Shown: positions 1,586 through 10,289 of the stretch, in pieces | Layout of the letters: each line of letters opens with the position of its first letter | How positions within the stretch are numbered: the stretch's first letter is position 1 | Origin: a phage | Sequence record: OZ346189.1 | DNA length: 64,000 bases | Strand: one strand, 5' to 3' | Notes under the pieces: model-generated | The model's input: only the letters and a program-made list of their open reading frames with translations | The model's database searches: none | Told to the model about the DNA's origin: nothing | Translations under genes and position numbers: made by a program

Positions 1586-2350
1586 TTGAAATTCATCTAC
1601 AAAGAACACTACCACAAAGGTGTTGTGTGGAGTCTATTTGACGGGTCTGGTGGTGCAGTTATTGACTGGGCAAAAGCTGGGTACCTGTGCCTGTGCTTTA
1701 ATGCAGAAGGTGCTGACCACGGCAGTTATGCAGAGGTGATAACCGATCATCCTAACATTCACTATGTGGATTATTGGATTGACCCATGGTTCCCTCAGGA
1801 AACTTTTTGCATGTATCCAGCTCCAGACTTTATTCTTGCATTTCCTCCGTGCACGCATTTAGCGGTATCAGGTGCTGCACATTTTAAGAAAAAGCTGGCT
1901 AAGGATCCTTTGATCCAAATTAATGCTGTAAAGGATGCTCGGGTTGCGGAAGAGTTGGGAGAGATTTACGATTGCCCGTGGCATGTAGAGAATCCTGTAG
2001 GGGTTATGTCCACACTGTGGCGAAAACCTGATTACCGTTTTCATCCTTCGGATTATGGTGGGTATTTACCGGAGGATGATGTAAACCCCTGGTTTCCTGA
2101 ATTTATAGCTCCACGTGATGCCTACCCAAAAATAACTTGCGGCTGGATAGGCAATGGATTTATAATCCCGGCCACAAAACCTGTCCCGCAAATAGTTGAC
2201 GCGGTTAGCGGGTATTCCATGCAACACGCCAAGCTGGGTGGAAAGAGTGCAAGAACGAAGATGATCCGAAGCCTCACGCCACGTGGCTGGGCAAAAGCCG
2301 TATTCTTAGCAAACGAGCCTGTAGTAAGGAGCAGAATTAATGGGAAGTAA
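1586..2350 (+). CDS. C5-cytosine DNA methyltransferase-like protein
   Basis: ORF track 1556-2350 but 5' end overlaps terminator; TTG 1586 with AGGAGA SD 1573-1578; motifs FDGSGG (motif I-like), PPCT..S.AG (PC motif, Q replaced by T) and VENPVG (ENV-like). Confidence 0.45.
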   Translation: MKFIYKEHYHKGVVWSLFDGSGGAVIDWAKAGYLCLCFNAEGADHGSYAEVITDHPNIHYVDYWIDPWFPQETFCMYPAPDFILAFPPCTHLAVSGAAHFKKKLAKDPLIQINAVKDARVAEELGEIYDCPWHVENPVGVMSTLWRKPDYRFHPSDYGGYLPEDDVNPWFPEFIAPRDAYPKITCGWIGNGFIIPATKPVPQIVDAVSGYSMQHAKLGGKSARTKMIRSLTPRGWAKAVFLANEPVVRSRINGK

Positions 2351-4418
2351 ATTTATGGCATCTGCATACAACCGTTTCGGTGAGCCAAACCCGAAAGCAA
2401 TTAAGTATAAAAGTGGGGGAAGTGTGAAACGAGACTATCGTGATGAAAAAGAGGTTGAAACTGTAGAGACTGTTTTAGAAAATACTAAAATCGTCCCTGT
2501 CCCACAACAAAATATCGGTCTGATGGCTGCACAATATTTTGGTGTGCGATCAGCATTGTCCCAAGAAGACGGTGTGACAGTCACTGCAACATATTTCCCA
2601 TATTACGACCGATACGGAAATCTGTCCGGTTTCAAAAAGCGTGACTGGACTATTCCTAAAGAACAAAGGGGCCACTTCTCCGTTGTTGGCATAGTAAAGG
2701 CCAACTCCCAGATGTTTGGTCAAAAGCTGTGTGCATCTTCCAACAACCGTAAGCAGATTAACGTTTGTGAGGGAGAAGGTGATGTTATTGCAGCATGGCA
2801 GGCTGCATATCAGATACAAGTAAAAGGGATTCTCACCAACGCTAAAGCCCCGGCAAAGGTGAAGCAGTGGGCTAAAGAGGTCCAGGACGGGATCGACGCA
2901 GTTATCAACGGTGGTGATCTGGCAGGAAAACCCTGCCTGCCTTTTGTTGGAATTAACTGTGGATGTGCAAACGCAGTAGATACTTTTGCAAACAATGAGA
3001 AGTTTATCCGTAGCTATGGAACAGTTGTGCTGGCAATGGATAACGATGCAGCTAACGAGGTAGAGAAGCAAAAACACGTCATTAAAGGTGTTGAGGCCAC
3101 GCACAATATCGCAGCATTTTTGATGGCTGATAACGTTTACCACGTAGAATACCCTGGTGAAGTAAATGACCCTGACGGGGTAAAAGATATCCGTGACATG
3201 CTGAAGGCTAAAAAGCTGGAAGATATTGTCAACATGTTCCGGCACCCTGTTAAATATGTGCCTGATGCTGTGTCGGATTTAGAAGACTTCTCTATCGAGT
3301 CTTTGCGGAAAAAGACTTCCAACGGGGTAGATATCAGCGCAGAGTTCCCAAAACTGCAAAAAATGCTAAAAGGCTTGCACAAAGGGACACTCGTAATGCT
3401 TACAGGGCCATCAGGGGGCGGTAAAACAACTGTAGCTAAAAAACTGGAACATTGTATTGCAAGATACCTAATGGACCCGACATGCCCGAAGGCTGATGAC
3501 TATGAAGAGGATGATCGTCTATGTATGATCCATCTTGAGGAGGACCCAGAGGAAGCAATTAACTCCTTGTATGCAAACCAGTTAGGGTTTGATGTTAAAG
3601 AGTTTGTTGAAGATCCTAGCCAGTTTTTAACTGATCAAGAACACGCAGAGATTCACCAATCATGGGCAAAAGCTGGAAAAATCAAAGTGTTCAAACATTT
3701 CGGATCTATTCCGGTGGACGAGTTGATTACCAAGCTTAAGCAAATGGTTTGCCTGTACCATTGCCGTTATATTGTGCTGGATCACCTATCCATGGTAATT
3801 TCAGGGCTTAATGTTAAGGATGAGCGAAAAGAACTGGACATGGCTATGACTCAGCTGGCTGCGTTTTGTAAGCAGTTTAACGTGTTTATCTTGGTGATCG
3901 CTCACCTCAAACGTACAGAGATTGTGCCTCCTAAGGACAAGGATGGTAACCCGTTACCTTTCTGGTATCCTGTGCGAAAAGAGAATTTGCGAGGATCGGC
4001 GGGGCTTGAACAGTTGAGTTGGGTAGTCATAGGTGTCGAGGCCGAAGAAATGGTGGATCGTTCTCGTGGACGTGTCCGTCTGGTAGGTCTTAAAAACCGT
4101 CCAGCAAAAACTCTAGGTATTGCTGACACTTTGGTTATGGACCCGCACACAGGTAAGTTCCATGATGCCAGTAATTGGTACTGGGACAAAGAAATGCAAA
4201 TGTTTACAGACGGAGAAGGTGGGGAGGTTGTTTGGAGACCTCAGGCTATGTTTGAGGATCAGGAGCATGCAGTTGTAGAAACACCTATGGGCAAGGTTGT
4301 GGCTGATAAGGTTGTAACTCCTACTGTTAAGCCTGTTGACACGCAGGAAGACCTCCAGTACGATGATCCATCCTCTGACCCGGTCCCTGGTTTTGAGGAT
4401 GATGAAACGCCTTTTTAA
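2340..4418 (+). CDS. bifunctional primase-helicase (toprim primase + DnaB-family helicase)
   Basis: 692 aa; toprim-like VCEGEGDVIAAW, Walker A GPSGGGKTT, RecA/DnaB-like C-terminal domain; acidic C-terminal tail ...GFEDDETPF. Confidence 0.8.
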   Translation: MGSKFMASAYNRFGEPNPKAIKYKSGGSVKRDYRDEKEVETVETVLENTKIVPVPQQNIGLMAAQYFGVRSALSQEDGVTVTATYFPYYDRYGNLSGFKKRDWTIPKEQRGHFSVVGIVKANSQMFGQKLCASSNNRKQINVCEGEGDVIAAWQAAYQIQVKGILTNAKAPAKVKQWAKEVQDGIDAVINGGDLAGKPCLPFVGINCGCANAVDTFANNEKFIRSYGTVVLAMDNDAANEVEKQKHVIKGVEATHNIAAFLMADNVYHVEYPGEVNDPDGVKDIRDMLKAKKLEDIVNMFRHPVKYVPDAVSDLEDFSIESLRKKTSNGVDISAEFPKLQKMLKGLHKGTLVMLTGPSGGGKTTVAKKLEHCIARYLMDPTCPKADDYEEDDRLCMIHLEEDPEEAINSLYANQLGFDVKEFVEDPSQFLTDQEHAEIHQSWAKAGKIKVFKHFGSIPVDELITKLKQMVCLYHCRYIVLDHLSMVISGLNVKDERKELDMAMTQLAAFCKQFNVFILVIAHLKRTEIVPPKDKDGNPLPFWYPVRKENLRGSAGLEQLSWVVIGVEAEEMVDRSRGRVRLVGLKNRPAKTLGIADTLVMDPHTGKFHDASNWYWDKEMQMFTDGEGGEVVWRPQAMFEDQEHAVVETPMGKVVADKVVTPTVKPVDTQEDLQYDDPSSDPVPGFEDDETPF

Positions 4419-4480
4419 TGTTTAACAAAGAGTGGGAGGGGTAGTACAACCGCCTCCCCTTTAAGGAGAACGTTTATACT

Positions 4481-7400
4481 ATGAGTATGTGGAATTTTGA
4501 CTTTGAGGCCTCAGGTCTTCTGGACGAGGAAGATCTTTACTACCATTGTGGCCTGTTTAAAGAGTTGAATAAAAATAATTTTATGTTGTTTTTGCCTATC
4601 AATGATAGATCTCATTACAGTGAAGAGGAGGTTGAAAAAGCAAAACAATTTATGCTGGCAAAGCAAGATATCTATCCTAGCTGCTCTGTCCGTATTGCGG
4701 ATTTCAGCCAGCTTGAATGGTGGTTAACCGGGAACTCCGATTGGTCACCCACATCATTAAGTTGTCACAACTGTTTTAGTTATGACTTTATCTTGATGGA
4801 GAAGCTGTCTGGTATTCATTTTGATATGTTCCGTGATCCCAAGTGTATGGGGACAATCAATAATCATCAGGTGAACCTGTTCGACACTCTGCCAATGAGT
4901 CGTATACTATGGCCCGACAGACCGTTACCTAAAGGATGCCCTGATTCTGTATACAATCCTGTTACAAAACGTATGCAGCAGGTAGGTCCTCATGGCCTAA
5001 TGGCGTGGGGGTACGCTTTAGGAAACCAGAAGGTTAAAATTGATGACTGGAGAAATTTACCTCTGTGGAAGTATGTTGATCGTGTATTCGAGGACGTTAT
5101 CATCCAGGAGCTGCTCTGGAAAGAGCTGGTAGCGGAATCAAAAGGTGTATTCTACGGCAAATCTGACATGCAGAACTTTATGTACGATCCAGCCAAAGAG
5201 AAGCCGAAAGGGTTCAAGAAGATTACCTGGAAGAATGCATTACGCCGAGGCATGCTGCAGCACTTCCTGATGGAGCTGCAGGCCCGTCAGGGTGTATACT
5301 TCGACATAGATGGAGCTATTGCTTTACGTGACCGTTGCGATGCGTGGATGAAAGAAATCGCTGATCGTGTTGAACCACAACTACCTTTAAAAGAGCTGTC
5401 AATGTCTCAGCGGCCCAAGTTCCCTGAAAAGCCGTTTAACCAAGACGGGACAATCTCTAATAATGGTTGGAAATGGTTAAAAGATAAGCTTGGCTATCCT
5501 GTAGACATGAGTGCTTTAGAGTTCAAAGCCCCGCCTAAGCGAGCATTTACCTCTACAGGAGATGTCAGCAAGATGGGGATAAAATGGTGTGAAGAGATGG
5601 GCTGCAAAGACCCCGATAAGATGGCTGATTTCTTGAGAGGCTATATTAAGGGCACCTCCACACCACAACCCTTACCTAAAGAGCTGATGGATCAGGCAAT
5701 AAGTGATCTGCAGCAGAAGCGAATGCCTGACTGCAAGATACCTATGAAAATCAGCAATCAGGACGACATCAAGCGATACCTAATCAGTGCTGGTTGGCTC
5801 CCAACAATGTGGAGAACTAAAGATGTAACTAAAGACAGCAAGAAGAAAGCTTTACCTGATGCAGATGTTGATGCACGAGTATATGCATATATGGACGAGC
5901 TTTTGGAGTCAGAGTATTGTGACCTAATTATCAACTTCTGGAACAAAACTGATGCTAAGTTCCAGACAACCGTGCACAAGTTCCGAAGCTTTCCTAACTC
6001 CGAAAGGATTAAAAAGGAAGTATTCGGGAAAATACGTAGAAAAGCCAGGGCACTTATTACTTCTCCGCAACTGAAAGATACGTTTGGACACCTATGCCCA
6101 AATCTTGAAAAATTGAACGGAGAGATGGCTAAAGATATCGTCTTGTGGTTATCATTGCGAAACCGCAGATCGGTCCTTGATCCAATCAAGGAGGATAAGG
6201 TTGATACTGGTCTTCTTAATCACCCACGTTTGAAGATTGACCATAAGCTTCCTGCTAAAAGCTCTGGATTAACAAACACTTCCAGACAGAAACACAGTAT
6301 TTGTGCAAACATGCCTAAACCATCTCCTAAAGTGGTTATGGGTAAAGAGATGCGTAGTCTGTGGGGTGTTCCTCCGGGATACTTTGAGATCGGTATTGAC
6401 GGGTCCAACTTAGAGCAGCTTATCGGGGCTTGGGGTGCCTTTGAGTTCGACAACGGCCTGTATTATGATGTTGTAAGTAATGGCGATGCACACTGTTATT
6501 CAGGAGATACACAAATTCTCACGGAGAAAGGGTGGGTGAGGTTTGAAGATCTTGATCCGGGAACACAAGTGTTCCAGTACGATCACAACACCTCGTCAAT
6601 GAACCTTGTTACTCCATTAAATTACGTTAAGCGTAGTTATTGTGGGGATATGTATCATTTCCACAACAGTAGTGTGGATTTTATGGTTACAGATCAACAC
6701 AGGATGCTGACTGTGGATCACAGAAGCAATAAATTGTTTGAAGATTTGGCAAAAGACCTGAAAGCAGGTAAAGGGTCTAATTCAGGAAGAAGGTTTATCC
6801 ATGCGGCAGAGTTTTATGGGAATACAACCTTATCTCCTGCCCAGGTTAATTTGCTTATTGCTATTCACGATGATGGGCACTTGCATACAAATAAGGACGG
6901 CAGCATCGTGTGCAGGATTCAGGTCGGAAAGGGAAGAAAAGTTGCAACGCTTTTAGATACTTTTTCTGCTCTAAGCCTTAGTTATGTAGAGCAGAGCGGG
7001 AAAACCACAAAAGGGGGCTTACTGGCGAGAAGGTTCCAATTCCACGTTCCGTCCTGGGTATTTGAGTTTTTGGACAACAATAAGGATTTCACCTATAACC
7101 TGATGAACCTTGATAAAGAATCTAAAAACCTGTTTATAGCTTCTTTATCTAACTGGGACGGGTGGGTATCTTCCGAAGGTGGAAAGGTTGCTTACTACTC
7201 CCAGGCCGAGTGCAGGAAGAAATCTGTAGAGGTGGTGTCTGCGCTGGCTACTCAGTGTGGTTTACGGAATAATACGGTGGCGATTCACAAAAAAGGTCGT
7301 GCCGTGCAGCACAGAATCACAATTGGTAGCAAACAGAGAGCAGGGTTGCTGACACTATCTAAAGAGTCTGTCGAGGTGAGCGGTTCTTTGGTTTATTGCG

Positions 7401-7879
7401 TTACCGTCCCTTCTGGAGCAATCATTGTGAGAAGGAATGGTAAAGTGGCAGTGTGCGGTAACTGTAATAACGCCAAAGCTTACTCTTCTGTAGCAGGCAA
7501 GGAGATTTCCCGTAACGATGGTAAACCTATCACGTATGGGGTTATGTATGGGGCACAAAAAGATAAAGTTGCAGATATGCTGGACATCTCCCCAGAGTTG
7601 GGACAAAGGGTAATCGATGCACTCTGGGATGCCAACCCAGGTCTTAAGGGGCGCAAAGAGGATCTGGAGAAATTCTGGGAAGCAACAGGTAAGAAGTTTA
7701 TCTACTCTTTTGATGGTCATGCTATCTGGACCCGATCTAAACACTCTTTACTTAATGCATACCAACAAAATGGCGGTGCATCGTTGTGTGACTTAGTTGG
7801 AATACTCATGCACCACCAGATGGTGAAGCGTGGGTGGTACGATGAAGGTGTTCGTCGTATTATTTATTACCATAAATAA
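4481..7879 (+). CDS. DNA polymerase, family A (Pol I/T7 gp5-like), N-terminal and catalytic part; contains an intein; interrupted before C-terminus
   Basis: SD AAGGAGAA; motif A IDGSNLEQL, Pol I-like DAH segment, motif B SRNDGKPITYGVMYG, Q..G.A.D segment QQNGGASLCD and HDE-like WYDE near end; stop TAA 7877-7879. Confidence 0.85.
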   Translation: MSMWNFDFEASGLLDEEDLYYHCGLFKELNKNNFMLFLPINDRSHYSEEEVEKAKQFMLAKQDIYPSCSVRIADFSQLEWWLTGNSDWSPTSLSCHNCFSYDFILMEKLSGIHFDMFRDPKCMGTINNHQVNLFDTLPMSRILWPDRPLPKGCPDSVYNPVTKRMQQVGPHGLMAWGYALGNQKVKIDDWRNLPLWKYVDRVFEDVIIQELLWKELVAESKGVFYGKSDMQNFMYDPAKEKPKGFKKITWKNALRRGMLQHFLMELQARQGVYFDIDGAIALRDRCDAWMKEIADRVEPQLPLKELSMSQRPKFPEKPFNQDGTISNNGWKWLKDKLGYPVDMSALEFKAPPKRAFTSTGDVSKMGIKWCEEMGCKDPDKMADFLRGYIKGTSTPQPLPKELMDQAISDLQQKRMPDCKIPMKISNQDDIKRYLISAGWLPTMWRTKDVTKDSKKKALPDADVDARVYAYMDELLESEYCDLIINFWNKTDAKFQTTVHKFRSFPNSERIKKEVFGKIRRKARALITSPQLKDTFGHLCPNLEKLNGEMAKDIVLWLSLRNRRSVLDPIKEDKVDTGLLNHPRLKIDHKLPAKSSGLTNTSRQKHSICANMPKPSPKVVMGKEMRSLWGVPPGYFEIGIDGSNLEQLIGAWGAFEFDNGLYYDVVSNGDAHCYSGDTQILTEKGWVRFEDLDPGTQVFQYDHNTSSMNLVTPLNYVKRSYCGDMYHFHNSSVDFMVTDQHRMLTVDHRSNKLFEDLAKDLKAGKGSNSGRRFIHAAEFYGNTTLSPAQVNLLIAIHDDGHLHTNKDGSIVCRIQVGKGRKVATLLDTFSALSLSYVEQSGKTTKGGLLARRFQFHVPSWVFEFLDNNKDFTYNLMNLDKESKNLFIASLSNWDGWVSSEGGKVAYYSQAECRKKSVEVVSALATQCGLRNNTVAIHKKGRAVQHRITIGSKQRAGLLTLSKESVEVSGSLVYCVTVPSGAIIVRRNGKVAVCGNCNNAKAYSSVAGKEISRNDGKPITYGVMYGAQKDKVADMLDISPELGQRVIDALWDANPGLKGRKEDLEKFWEATGKKFIYSFDGHAIWTRSKHSLLNAYQQNGGASLCDLVGILMHHQMVKRGWYDEGVRRIIYYHK
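6494..7462 (+). mobile_element. intein with LAGLIDADG-type homing endonuclease domain inside DNA polymerase
   Basis: 323 in-frame codons between Pol motifs A and B; starts CYSGDTQIL (block A), TDQH (block B), LLIAIHDDGH and LFIASLSNWDGW (LAGLIDADG-like), ends ...LVYCVTV...VAVCGN followed by Cys +1. Confidence 0.7.
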
Positions 7880-8377
7880 CATTGTGGCTTCATAGAGTAA
7901 TCTATGTCGAATAACCTCTTTAACTGCGGGAAGCCTAAACCTTATGGCAAGGTAATCCGCAACGAAGCGCTCAAAAGAGCGAACGCTCAGAGGCCATTCC
8001 GAAAGGAAGTAGACCAGCAAGTGCGGTCGAAATGGGAGGATTCCTGTGGTTGCTTATCATAGGAATATGAGATGGTCCGATCCTACGTGAAAACGTATGG
8101 CTATGCACGTAATGGTGCGGGGTAGCTTAACGACCTACCTGAACTATTGGATGAGTACCAACTTCAAGTGCCTGACACACCGAAGTATAAGACTGTGTAC
8201 ACCTTCGACACAATTGAAGAACTGGAAGCATTTAAGGCAGAGCAGGAAGCCAAACTTCATGTGTTCGACGGTCATAAGTACAAAAAGGCACGCAAGGATG
8301 AGGACGGAAACGAAGTGGTTGACAGAGACGGAAACACGGTGTACGATCCTATCCTGAACGATGACGGAAAGCTTGAA
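7847..8377 (+). other. intervening sequence in DNA polymerase gene (candidate group I intron; boundaries approximate)
   Basis: In-frame stops at 7877, 7898 and 8060 separate ...GWYDE from the polymerase C-terminus encoded in the same frame from about 8378; no large ORF inside. Confidence 0.4.
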
Positions 8378-8503
8378 CTTATCTGGAGCCCTGTGGGTGA
8401 AATGGTGGTACATTGCTTCTGGCAAGCTTCTAAAATGATGGGAGTCCCGTTCCAGATCACAGGTGAATACTTGTGTGGTCGTAATTGGGGTAATTGTCAC
8501 TAA
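8378..8503 (+). CDS. DNA polymerase C-terminal exon (ORF open from 8147)
   Basis: LIWSPVGEMVVHCFWQASKMMGVPFQITGEYLCGRNWGNCH matches the conserved ...VPL.V..G.NW..AH terminus of Pol I/T7 gp5; same reading frame as 4481-7879. Confidence 0.55.
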   Translation, partial: LIWSPVGEMVVHCFWQASKMMGVPFQITGEYLCGRNWGNCH

Positions 8504-8552
8504 TGTAAACTATCAACACATGGAAGTGTTGTTGAGCAAAGAGGAGACTTTT

Positions 8553-8837
8553 ATGGTAGTAGAACCAACAAAAACATTTACATCCATGACTATCCCTGTT
8601 ATTATGCAGGTGGAGTGTGTTCAGGTATCTCAAGTGTGGCCTGGCACCAAAATCCCAACAGGGCCTGATTTCTTTCAGGTTGGGAAAGTGTACAATGTCT
8701 GGAAGGCACCAGATTGTTACCCTTTCATTAAAGATGACCGTGGGATGCTGTGGTATCTTGGAAATGACTTGACACTGCACCTTGGGAATGCTATTATTGC
8801 AGTATTCAGACTTAACAAGAAGGAGACCGATCAATGA
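8553..8837 (+). CDS. hypothetical protein
   Basis: ORF track 8463-8837; ATG 8553 preceded by GAGGAG SD 8541-8546. Confidence 0.5.
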   Translation: MVVEPTKTFTSMTIPVIMQVECVQVSQVWPGTKIPTGPDFFQVGKVYNVWKAPDCYPFIKDDRGMLWYLGNDLTLHLGNAIIAVFRLNKKETDQ

Positions 8838-9061
8838 CGACTTTGGTTAAAGCCACCTTTGTAGAAGAAAAGATGACAGACATGTCATTCTTTAAAGAAG
8901 GAAAGACCTACGAGGTTTATTCCGATAAAGCTCGTGCAAACAAAATGATTAAAGACGAGGAAGGGGTTGACTGGTATATCTCTCACCTGGCAAACGGTGA
9001 GTATCATATCTACGGAACCACTTTGCTTGCCAAGTTTGTAGTTGTTGAAGAGGACCTATGA
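8834..9061 (+). CDS. hypothetical protein
   Basis: 75 aa; AAGGAG SD; start overlaps upstream stop. Confidence 0.5.
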   Translation: MTTLVKATFVEEKMTDMSFFKEGKTYEVYSDKARANKMIKDEEGVDWYISHLANGEYHIYGTTLLAKFVVVEEDL

Positions 9062-9252
9062 AAGTAAAGTATCTTGCTGAAGGTATGAATAGGTATTTTA
9101 CCCTTGGTGAAGAATATTGGCCCTTTACAAACAACGGCGATGTCTACGTGAAAGATAATTTCGGCACGCCGTGGTTTCTGCACTCTAATGGGCTGGGATA
9201 CTCCATTTACTGCGGTGCAGTGAACAACACAACTCTTGCAGAGTTCGTTTAG
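9058..9252 (+). CDS. hypothetical protein
   Basis: 64 aa; translationally coupled to upstream ORF. Confidence 0.45.
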   Translation: MKVKYLAEGMNRYFTLGEEYWPFTNNGDVYVKDNFGTPWFLHSNGLGYSIYCGAVNNTTLAEFV

Positions 9253-9262
9253 AGGAGGTAGG

Positions 9263-9634
9263 ATGTTAGTAAAAGGTACCCACACAGTCAAACAACGTAT
9301 TGAAGTTGAGATTGATGATTGTGAGCTGAAGCATATTTTACGGTCATGCTCCAACGTTTTGCTCCTTAGTATTCTTCAGGAGCGAGCGGAGAACGAGTTC
9401 TTAAATGCATTGGCAGGCCGTCCCGGTGACTTCTGTGTGCGTAAGCGTGGTGACAACAAGTCGTGGTTGTGGGAGATCGATGCCGACTGGGATTACCACA
9501 AAAATGAGGGTATAGATGAGCCTATTCGTGAACTGACGGACAAAGAGATTCAGATGTACAATGAAGTTTGTCATTGGGCAACACGCCAACAAATTTACCT
9601 AGACCCTGTGTGGCTGATTGAAAATAGTCGTTGA
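9263..9634 (+). CDS. hypothetical protein
   Basis: ORF track 9236-9634; ATG 9263 after GAGGAGG SD. Confidence 0.5.
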   Translation: MLVKGTHTVKQRIEVEIDDCELKHILRSCSNVLLLSILQERAENEFLNALAGRPGDFCVRKRGDNKSWLWEIDADWDYHKNEGIDEPIRELTDKEIQMYNEVCHWATRQQIYLDPVWLIENSR

Positions 9635-9659
9635 CAAGAAGTAAGGTTAGATGTAAGAT
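9631..9659 (+). promoter_or_regulatory. sigma70-like promoter
   Basis: TTGACA 9631-9636, 17-nt spacer, TAAGAT 9654-9659; upstream of CDS 9711. Confidence 0.5.
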
Positions 9660-9710
9660 ACTCCTCACAAACAGAGTATTGATTGTTAAATAATTAAGGA
9701 GACCTCTAAG

Positions 9711-9965
9711 ATGAAAATCATGTTGAAACCAGAATGCGTTGCAAACGACCGAGCTTTTAAAGATTGCACACTTGGCGCTACTTATGAAGCAGAGTTTTGT
9801 GAGAACCCTTTGGTAAAAGCCCTTTTGGAAGAAGGGGCCCCTCTATCACAAGAAGAGCTTGATGAGCTGGAAAACTCAGCACAGTGCCTTACCTTTAAAG
9901 ATGATGAAGGAGACTCTGTCTGGTGCACTGTTAACGAAGTAGTTTTTGTAAAAACTGAACATTAA
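9711..9965 (+). CDS. hypothetical protein (paralog of 10029-10289)
   Basis: 84 aa; AAGGAGA SD; shares AF(K/R)DCT and D..GD.V.CT motifs with the next gene. Confidence 0.55.
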   Translation: MKIMLKPECVANDRAFKDCTLGATYEAEFCENPLVKALLEEGAPLSQEELDELENSAQCLTFKDDEGDSVWCTVNEVVFVKTEH

Positions 9966-9968
9966 TAC

Positions 9969-9997
9969 TTGACAACAGCGATAGGACCTAATACAAT
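9969..9997 (+). promoter_or_regulatory. sigma70-like promoter
   Basis: TTGACA 9969-9974, 17-nt spacer, TACAAT 9992-9997. Confidence 0.55.
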
Positions 9998-10028
9998 GGT
10001 CCTATCAAAACGAAAGGGGACCACAGCA

Positions 10029-10289
10029 ATGACCAAACAATATCAACGAATTAAAGCCAAGGTTAAGCCAGACTATCTAGAGAAGGACTCTGCTTTTCGG
10101 GACTGCACAGCTGACAAAGTTTACACAGGGGCCGTCCTGTTGAACGATAAACTTGAAGTAGATGTGCTGGGTAAAGAGGCCGTTATCGAGGATGACAACG
10201 GTGACTGTGTTTTCTGCACCACACGAGAGCTAGAAGTCTTAGAATATTTCGGTGAAATCTTCAACTCCTTAGACGACGAGGAAGCGTGA
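10029..10289 (+). CDS. hypothetical protein (paralog of 9711-9965)
   Basis: ORF track 9969-10289 starts inside the promoter; ATG 10029 lies downstream of predicted TSS. Confidence 0.5.
   Translation: MTKQYQRIKAKVKPDYLEKDSAFRDCTADKVYTGAVLLNDKLEVDVLGKEAVIEDDNGDCVFCTTRELEVLEYFGEIFNSLDDEEA

Follow-up and report, generated by a model that had tools for sequence, protein, structure and literature searches.

A DNA polymerase gene of an rV5-like phage very probably interrupted by a group I intron as well as an intein

The gene at positions 4481–8503 of a 64,000-nucleotide (nt) stretch of phage DNA (sequence record OZ346189.1; the whole stretch is called the window) very probably encodes an essential family A (T7-type) DNA polymerase and carries two independent selfish elements of the homing type. 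In all likelihood these are a group I intron, acting at the RNA level, and an intein, acting at the protein level, which are removed separately. What was established directly comprises the exact boundaries, the RNA structure and its covariation, the fold, the family membership, and the fact that each element is polymorphic in its presence. The initial annotation, made from the letters and a list of open reading frames (ORFs), had proposed an intein and a self-splicing intron; the kinds of element were right, but the size and boundaries of the intron and the position of polymerase motif C were not. Judged by the 90–99% nucleotide identity of 4481–8503 to Vequintavirus (rV5-like) coliphages, the source phage is a Vequintavirus. 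Query coverage was about 75% in most of these relatives and nearly complete in seven, the missing 24% being the 969-nt insert of the intein. The parts of the gene, with the evidence that defines them, are:

4481..6493, plus strand, polymerase exon 1, N-extein part (ORF list; collinearity with phage nimi; T7 gp5 alignment)
6494..7462, plus strand, 323-codon intein that contains a LAGLIDADG homing-endonuclease domain (absence from intein-less alleles; homologues; conservation; AlphaFold2 (AF2) and Foldseek)
7463..7873, plus strand, polymerase exon 1, C-extein part (collinearity with nimi; T7 gp5 alignment)
7463..7507, plus strand, tract of the C-extein that co-segregates with the intein (complete linkage, 9 alleles)
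7874..8149, plus strand, group I intron of 276 nt, ORF-less (Rfam RF00028; absence from intron-less alleles; covariation; minimum free energy fold)
8150..8503, plus strand, polymerase exon 2 (collinearity with nimi; T7 gp5 alignment)

Removal of 6494–7462 and 7874–8149 leaves a gene of 2778 nt, which is also the length of the polymerase gene of nimi, a single ORF; the two genes run collinear, and their products differ in 42 of 925 residues. The conceptual mature protein, whose alignment to T7 gp5 had been put forward by the initial annotation as a check, matched it with an E-value of 1.7e-13, unbroken through the intein and intron junctions. The N-extein part holds the exonuclease domain and motif A (IDGSNLEQL), which the initial annotation had recognised and which aligned to T7 gp5 D475, and ends with ...SNGDAH, the His being equivalent to T7 H506. 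The C-extein part contains motif B (RNDGKPITYGVMYG), likewise recognised earlier and aligned here to the O-helix, and ends with ...RRIIYYH, the last residue being the His of motif C. Exon 2 opens with the Asp-Glu of that motif (DEYQLQV...) and runs to the C-terminus ...GRNWGNCH, with the stop codon at 8503. In the gp5 alignment 'riiyyhdeyql' stands opposite T7 'YMAWVHDEIQV' (H653-D654-E655). GWYDE, previously taken for motif C, lies opposite T7 'GWDGD', upstream of the true motif C YYH/DEYQLQV (here and below a slash marks an insertion point or junction).

The ORF at 4481–7879 is present as described earlier and comprises 1132 amino acids (aa). The in-frame stops at 7877, 7898 and 8060 that had been listed were found, together with a further one at 8123 that had been overlooked. 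An Rfam scan of 7000–9500, the covariance-model search that had been suggested for group I/II cores, gave one match, RF00028 at 7864–8099, with 64.7 bits (curated gathering threshold, 50 bits), an E-value of 1.6e-15 and coverage of the full model (1–253); it is the sole Rfam match across the whole window. The model P1 pairs CCAUAA (7870–7875) with UUGUGG (7882–7887) and contains the wobble pair U7873·G7884. This pair places the end of exon 1 at ...TAT TAC CAT (..IIYYH), so that the next codons, AAA TAA, belong to the intron. At the other end the frame reopens past the TAG at 8123 and reads L-DEYQLQV..., with G8149 immediately before GAT GAG. Joining 7873 to 8150 yields YYH/DEYQLQV, a canonical family A motif C. 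The splice-site rules of group I introns, for which no suitable positions had been found before, are thereby satisfied by U7873 as U(-1) and G8149 as terminal G, both of them invariant in five homologues.

The predicted spliced junction is TACCAT/GATGAG, with flanks ATTTATTACCAT/GATGAGTACCAA and the protein sequence TATTACCAT joined to GATGAGTAC. By tblastn, the 84-aa predicted junction peptide was found 100% identical, in one contiguous 252-nt piece, in several Vequintaviruses, the intron-less ones including nimi, rV5_ev147, rV5_ev168, slur12, naswa and O157 typing phage 4. The intron boundaries are exact, as three independent tests (the tblastn junction peptide, the collinearity with nimi and the T7 gp5 alignment) agree. 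The insertion point lies between the His and Asp codons of motif C (T7 H653/D654; position 881 of E. coli Pol I). The polymerase terminus had rightly been placed in the same frame with its end at 8503, but exon 2 begins at 8150 (GAT GAG) and not at about 8378. Small ORFs at 7904–8062 and 8097–8357 were considered as genes and rejected; they gave no Pfam matches and are located within the intron or in another frame of exon 2.

The intron's secondary structure consists of the following helices:

7870–7875/7882–7887, plus strand, P1 (U7873·G7884)
7891–7895/7902–7906, plus strand, P2
7915–7920/8034–8039, plus strand, P3
7925–7930/7956–7961, plus strand, P4
7933–7935/7951–7953, plus strand, P5
7968–7972/7977–7981, plus strand, P6
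7992–7996/8073–8077, plus strand, P7 (pseudoknot with P3)
7997–8000/8005–8008, plus strand, P7.1 (followed by a GUA linker)
8012–8015/8025–8028, plus strand, P7.2
8041–8048/8058–8065, plus strand, P8
8082–8088/8093–8100, plus strand, P9
8105–8108/8115–8118, plus strand, P9.1
8120–8125/8135–8140, plus strand, P9.2
8150–8153 with 7880–7883, plus strand, P10 of 4 base pairs (exon 2 GAUG with CAUU)

An unconstrained minimum free energy fold recovered all nested helices (z = -2.6). Across five ORF-less homologous introns, 98.7% of the cells pair and 25 of 64 pairs are changed on both sides; slid partners gave 1–5 such double-sided changes, and none of 500 shuffles reached the observed values. The conserved core P3–P8, including the P3/P7 pseudoknot, is supported by this covariation. 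Two unpaired cells, in P6 of the intron of Vibrio phage K470, are alignment artefacts caused by misalignment in MAFFT. The P9.2 hairpin, with its three compensatory pairs, was preferred to an alternative outer helix for P9.1 (8101–8103 with 8123–8125). As for P10, the intron-less nimi allele reads GACGAA at the start of exon 2, by which one of its pairs would be broken.

The initial annotation had left the class of the intron open. Between P7 and the 3′ strand of P3 (7997–8028) the RNA reads UUCC-GAAA-GGAA, GUA, GACC...GGUC, and P7.1 and P7.2 joined by G-U-A are the feature by which phage polymerase introns were assigned to subgroup IA2 (PMC3428280). The element is a group I intron with a P7.1/P7.2 extension typical of IA2 by this structural criterion.

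Introns of 254–843 nt occupy the exact H/DE site, with the same CCAU/AA..UUGUGG P1, in Vequintavirus, Avunavirus, Certrevirus and a Vibrio phage:

JEP1 (Vequintavirus), 328 nt, no HNH ORF
JLBYU08 (Vequintavirus), 329 nt, no HNH ORF
19-1-2 (Avunavirus), 317 nt, no HNH ORF
K470 (Vibrio phage), 254 nt, no HNH ORF
CR9 (Certrevirus), 772 nt, HNH ORF
CB7 (Certrevirus), 687 nt, HNH ORF
AlexBoehm and WM (Vequintavirus), 842 nt, HNH ORF
Mangalyan (Vequintavirus), 843 nt, HNH ORF

The 276-nt intron itself is 100% identical in rV5, LL12, MaxTheCat, YP-6 and others. In the long introns of AlexBoehm, WM and Mangalyan the HNH ORF sits in the P6a loop with its ribosome-binding site in the stem, whereas the window copy has a simple P6 hairpin. 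The gene in these 842–843-nt sister introns (loci L006, 3025–3866; L002, 4894–5736; L008, 3994–4835) encodes 168 aa. The 328-nt intron of JEP1 has the same backbone without the ORF and forms with the HNH versions a natural series in which the endonuclease gene was gained or lost.

The polymerase intron is already known. In GenBank, the polymerase is annotated as a two-piece join in MZ501094 (MaxTheCat) and MZ501048 (AlexBoehm), and the paper on the BASEL collection annotated intron boundaries by comparative genomics and listed one and two introns for these phages (PMC8594841). MaxTheCat, a member of that collection, and rV5 have an identical intron at the identical site and differ from the window in having no intein. 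The original rV5 paper described introns in the terminase gene only and a '775-aa' polymerase; the polymerase intron went unrecognised both there and in RefSeq. In the rV5 RefSeq record NC_011041 (locus L004, 1501–4555) the polymerase appears as the separate coding sequences gp224, gp223 and gp220, and two further entries, the hypothetical ORFs gp222 and gp221, fall within the intron or use a different frame of exon 2. At its 5′ end the polymerase is likewise split in that record, which suggests a frameshift or a sequencing error there.

A homologous intron with experimental evidence is that of Pectobacterium phage CB7 (Certrevirus, Vequintavirinae), located between CB7_51 and CB7_49 at the same H/DE site. 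It has the same P1 exon strand and guide (CCAU/AAGUAACAUUGUGG ... UUUUG/GAUGAA) and differs in its length of 687 nt and its HNH homing-endonuclease ORF, CB7_50, the window copy being ORF-less. The CB7 polymerase intron splices in vivo, as demonstrated by RT-PCR (reverse transcription and polymerase chain reaction) and Sanger sequencing (PMC7344957), and by analogy the intron of the window presumably self-splices in its phage. Further counterparts are the introns of the T7-like phages ΦI and W31, assigned to Pol I position 881 and to subgroup IA2, with HNH in P6a (PMC3428280). Compared by their description in that paper, they resemble the window intron in the position within motif C, the subgroup features and the G-U-A-joined P7.1/P7.2, and share the HNH ORF in P6a with the AlexBoehm, WM and Mangalyan variants; they differ in that their hosts are podoviruses of the T7 group. 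In the terminase large subunit gene of the rV5-like Escherichia phage Av-05, a match with 73% identity to the 5′ half of the polymerase intron was seen. Sequence similarity thus suggests that related introns occur in both genes.

The intron of about 531 nt (7847–8377) that the initial annotation had drawn, joining YDE to LIWSPV, keeps the frame, and GWYDE superficially resembles HDE. It can nevertheless be discarded: uninterrupted homologues keep all 76 codons of 8150–8377, which this junction would delete, as well as the codons 7847–7873; the gp5 alignment pairs GWYDE with GWDGD and YYHDE with WVHDE; and the Rfam core lies at 7864–8099. The actual intron is about half that size. It had also been considered that the polymerase is made as two polypeptides, one from 4481–7879 (...YYHK) and one translated separately from about 8147, with no splicing of the RNA. 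Split phage enzymes with non-splicing insertions do exist, for instance NrdA of Aeh1 (cited in PMC7344957), and the rV5 RefSeq record annotates separate coding sequences. Yet the intervening RNA makes up a whole group I ribozyme, for which covariation speaks, the break would part the His from the Asp-Glu inside a catalytic motif, and the homologous CB7 intron splices (PMC7344957). Furthermore, exon 2 has no in-frame start other than a TTG that the final three bases of the intron make up, with no Shine-Dalgarno-like sequence upstream. A scan of 4300–8700 for promoters and terminators gave nothing above chance, promoter-like sites included, and lends no support to a separate expression of exon 2. 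Two polypeptides are therefore very unlikely, and a spliced group I intron is the reading retained here.

The insert of 323 codons at 6494–7462 with the organisation of an intein was described exactly by the initial annotation, as precisely these 969 nt are absent from the polymerase genes of MaxTheCat, rV5, nimi and AlexBoehm. Its first residues are CYSGDTQIL and its last, before a Cys, VAVCGN; TDQH and two LAGLIDADG-like motifs lie in between. The insertion point, GGGGACGCACAC/CAAAACAATGCTGAGGCATATACA in intein-less alleles, lies directly after a conserved GDxH (...NGDAH), which is equivalent to T7 H506/T507 in the fingers domain. H506, the counterpart of the His before the intein, is a residue that we take to contact the incoming deoxynucleoside triphosphate (dNTP) in the T7 structure. 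The landmarks of the intein are:

6494–6496, plus strand, Cys1
6689–6700, plus strand, block B Thr66/His69 (T66-D-Q-H69)
6872–6874, plus strand, Asp127 of LAGLIDADG motif 1 (LLIAIHDDG)
7157–7159, plus strand, Asp222 of LAGLIDADG motif 2 (LFIASLSNWDG)
7397–7399, plus strand, block F Cys302
7457–7462, plus strand, Gly322-Asn323
7463–7465, plus strand, +1 Cys nucleophile of the C-extein

The standard residues of inteins, C1, TxxH, N323 and C+1, are in place; at the penultimate position (G:6), Gly322 replaces the His, which is common but not defining in inteins. End-to-end homologues with 25–30% identity were found by tblastn in unrelated phages, inserted in genes for nicotinamide phosphoribosyltransferase (NAMPT), NrdA, NrdB, PhoH, thymidylate synthase (ThyA) and PolA, and further ones in 228 mycobacteriophage records. 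In an alignment of ten members, C1, H69, D127, D222, C302, R313, G322 and N323 are invariant. A HMMER scan of 1.84 billion representatives retrieved 8167 relatives at E<=1e-3, from which residues were counted on the 143 full-length matches among the top 150:

Cys1, 143/143 relatives
block B Thr or Ser, 142/143 relatives
block B His, 141/143 relatives
LAGLIDADG Asp of motif 1, 136/143 relatives
LAGLIDADG Asp of motif 2, 138/143 relatives
block F Cys, 143/143 relatives
penultimate Gly, 133/143 relatives
terminal Asn, 129/143 relatives, with Gln in the other 14

Since 133 of 143 members have Gly, the penultimate Gly is a character of the clade and not a defect. It had been noted correctly in the initial annotation as a departure from the usual His, and the concern attached to it dissolves, because a Gly-Asn member splices efficiently (PMC5050341). 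Pfam matches of clade members are to LAGLIDADG_3 and LAGLIDADG_1. A word-indexed protein search with the intein alone as query returned nothing, and the search worked with the family alignment as query. By these sequence comparisons the clade is very large and mostly phage-borne, with thousands of representatives, and the window intein, not described before, is an unremarkable member of this large known clade at a recurrent PolA site. Several other representative proteins have clade inteins at this GDxH/ position within PolA-like exteins; the +1 residue there is Thr, Ser or Cys, and in divergent PolA genes Thr or Ser. A second PolA site for clade members was also seen (...R..VN/intein/SP.Q..A.D, or ...GN/SP.Q; P0003, P0005, P0009; L020, 1501–2526).

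A structural model of the intein from its single sequence was unusable (AlphaFold predicted local distance difference test, pLDDT, 35) and was replaced by one based on a multiple alignment. This AF2 model, built on 13 sequences (the window intein and 12 relatives), reached a pLDDT of 82.7. Its best Foldseek matches in the PDB are homing-endonuclease inteins, TliVMA and PI-SceI (E 6e-14 to 1e-12), followed by I-DmoI (E ~1e-6) and the AceL NrdHF intein (template modelling score 0.73–0.75, normalised to target). The predicted structure shows both a Hint fold and a two-helix LAGLIDADG alpha-beta-beta-alpha-beta-beta-alpha fold, and the LAGLIDADG domain is presumably active as an endonuclease, for which the patchy distribution and the linked 45-nt flank described below are indirect signs.

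Two characterised inteins are informative with respect to the chemistry of splicing. The intein in the RDF (phosphoesterase) of mycobacteriophage Bethlehem aligns end to end with that of the window (E 1e-10) and belongs to the same clade; both have Cys1, the block F VWC, the terminal Gly-Asn and a LAGLIDADG domain, the Bethlehem intein ending in ..TGN/S. It differs in its identity of 21% only, its extein and the host phylum. Kelley et al. found that it splices to completion and that the G316H substitution slows splicing, and it is treated as class 1 (PMC5050341). The AceL NrdHF intein (PDB 6ZGQ), an atypical split intein, matches the splicing domain best among solved structures and was shown experimentally to be class 3; like the window intein it has Met at B:12, Cys at F:4 and neither of the C-terminal histidines (PMC7891396). 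Unlike the window intein, which is contiguous and has Cys1 and a LAGLIDADG domain, it is naturally split and lacks an endonuclease and an N-terminal Cys.

Several points weigh against an intein and an intron that are both active as proposed. The intein has neither the penultimate His of block G nor the His of block F that usually assists cyclisation of the Asn, and Pfam and NCBIfam models applied to its single sequence gave only Hint_2 and intein_Nterm, below the curated cut-offs. With Cys in place of the block F Asp, the exact route may be class 1 or class-3-like. RNA and protein splicing in this phage are what we infer, the latter being probable from the conservation of residues and from the existence of seven viable phage isolates with the intein. 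Finally, intein-less alleles have Gln at +1, so that homing would need co-conversion of the flank, which is hypothetical here.

The loss of both histidines and the sub-threshold scores of the profile hidden Markov models would suit a decayed, non-splicing remnant that is tolerated by the polymerase, or a polymerase allele that is non-functional. Such decay is nonetheless highly unlikely. All residues that are invariant in the clade are intact, the insert occurs at 92–99% aa identity in seven independently isolated, plaque-forming phages, and 323 aa inserted beside the equivalent of T7 H506, with the dNTP contact assumed above, are unlikely to be tolerated. Moreover, Gly-Asn is the norm of the clade, and a member with this ending outperforms its own G-to-H mutant in splicing (PMC5050341). 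A more refined doubt concerns the route, which may be class-3-like or redox-gated and use Cys302 in place of plain class 1 chemistry. Throughout the clade Cys replaces the usual class 1 block F Asp (Cys at F:4 in 143/143 relatives), B:12 is hydrophobic (Met, Cys, Val, Leu or Ile) and both C-terminal histidines are missing, and the combination of Met at B:12 with the absence of His at F:13 and G:6 recurs in the class 3 AceL NrdHF intein (PMC7891396). Of the features of class 3, however, the Cys at F:4 alone fits: Cys1 is invariant (143/143), although class 3 inteins have no N-terminal nucleophile, B:12 is not Trp, G:5 is Cys and not Thr (Thr, Ser or Cys in the clade), and the related Bethlehem RDF intein is treated as class 1 (PMC5050341). 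A route of this kind is thus unlikely for the window intein, and, as the clade always has Cys1, unlike class 3 inteins, it is filed by sequence as class-1-type. For the clade as a whole there is likewise a small chance that splicing follows a hybrid or other pathway in which Cys302 bears a branched thioester, or that a disulphide between Cys1 and Cys302 gates it by redox; if redox gating were true, maturation of the polymerase would be conditional during infection.

Taking the gene to contain a group I intron and a splicing intein, its expression may be pictured as follows. At the RNA step the intron would excise itself by guanosine-initiated, two-step transesterification, with P1 presenting U7873·G7884, P10 aligning exon 2 and G8149 serving as terminal G. 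Translation of unspliced mRNA would end two codons into the intron (AAA TAA), giving a protein without the carboxylates of motif C, and spliced mRNA would give a precursor of 1248 aa. From this the 323-aa intein would excise itself by means of Cys1, Asn323 and Cys+1, joining ...GDAH to CNNAK... in a polymerase of 925 aa. Both elements would spread by homing, through the LAGLIDADG domain of the intein and the HNH gene in P6a of the sister introns.

The distribution of the elements is in agreement with such mobility. The intein was found in 7 of about 134 related genomes, and its occurrence relative to the intron is as follows:

nimi: intein absent, no intron
rV5 and MaxTheCat: intein absent, intron of 276 nt
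AlexBoehm: intein absent, intron of 842 nt with HNH
window, 241Ecol014PP, YP-6 and EPFV3: intein present, intron of 276 nt
JEP1: intein present, intron of 328 nt
Mangalyan and WM: intein present, intron of 843/842 nt with HNH

Intein and intron assort independently, a pattern typical of homing elements in phage replication genes. Given the LAGLIDADG domain and the HNH gene in P6a, homing fits this patchy, independent distribution among near-identical phages. The flank of the intein is linked to it. Intein-plus alleles read DAH-(intein)-CNNAKAYSSVAGKEI (in WM with Ala for the second Ser) and intein-minus alleles DAH-QNNAEAYTKVAGREV; in the 45-nt tract 7463–7507 six amino acids differ, one of the changes being Gln to Cys at +1. 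Between the window and nimi, the 100-nt bin that follows the intein site holds 25 nt mismatches, compared with 0–7 per bin elsewhere in the 3′ 2,100 nt. The linked +1 Cys and flank of about 45 nt are as would be expected if the tract had been co-converted in homing or had come from a foreign polymerase allele, and on sequence grounds the linkage reads as a signature of co-conversion or target immunity. An intron and an intein within one gene have been reported for nrdA of CB7 (Table 3 of PMC7344957) and for genes encoding ribonucleotide reductase in Bacillus prophages (Lazarevic 2001, cited in PMC4760082); these likewise combine a group I intron with an intein, the host gene in the window being that of DNA polymerase.

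Some features of the surroundings were also observed. The upstream neighbour of the polymerase gene is a primase-helicase gene (2340–4418). In the first 600 nt of the polymerase gene (4481–5080), 163 of 600 positions differ from nimi, compared with 0–7 per 100 nt over most of the rest, and the 5′ allele of the window gene (first ~600 nt) is shared with MaxTheCat; these differences indicate that the 5′ segment encoding the exonuclease domain is probably mosaic or recombinant among Vequintaviruses. Small tandem ORFs 3′ of the gene (8553–10289) look like paralogous pairs (8553–8837 and 8834–9061, E 3e-7; 9711–9965 and 9969–10289, E 3e-8). In the intein-plus phage 241Ecol014PP, a free-standing HNH/NUMOD4 endonuclease gene, absent from the window, lies directly 3′ of the polymerase gene (locus L003, 5544–6191).

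Both elements are of known kinds and of low novelty, and the current understanding is not overturned. The exact intron and intein coordinates are of value mainly for annotation and method. They allow correct gene models, whereas many records of Vequintavirus, that of the rV5 reference among them, show the polymerase as fragments with spurious small ORFs or as an unexplained protein of 1132 aa. The intein samples a very large clade with Gly-Asn and a block F Cys, whose splicing chemistry has been little studied experimentally. Near-identical phages present every tested combination of intein presence or absence with no intron, an ORF-less intron or an HNH intron, and this natural series is well suited to the study of homing, co-conversion and endonuclease-gene loss.

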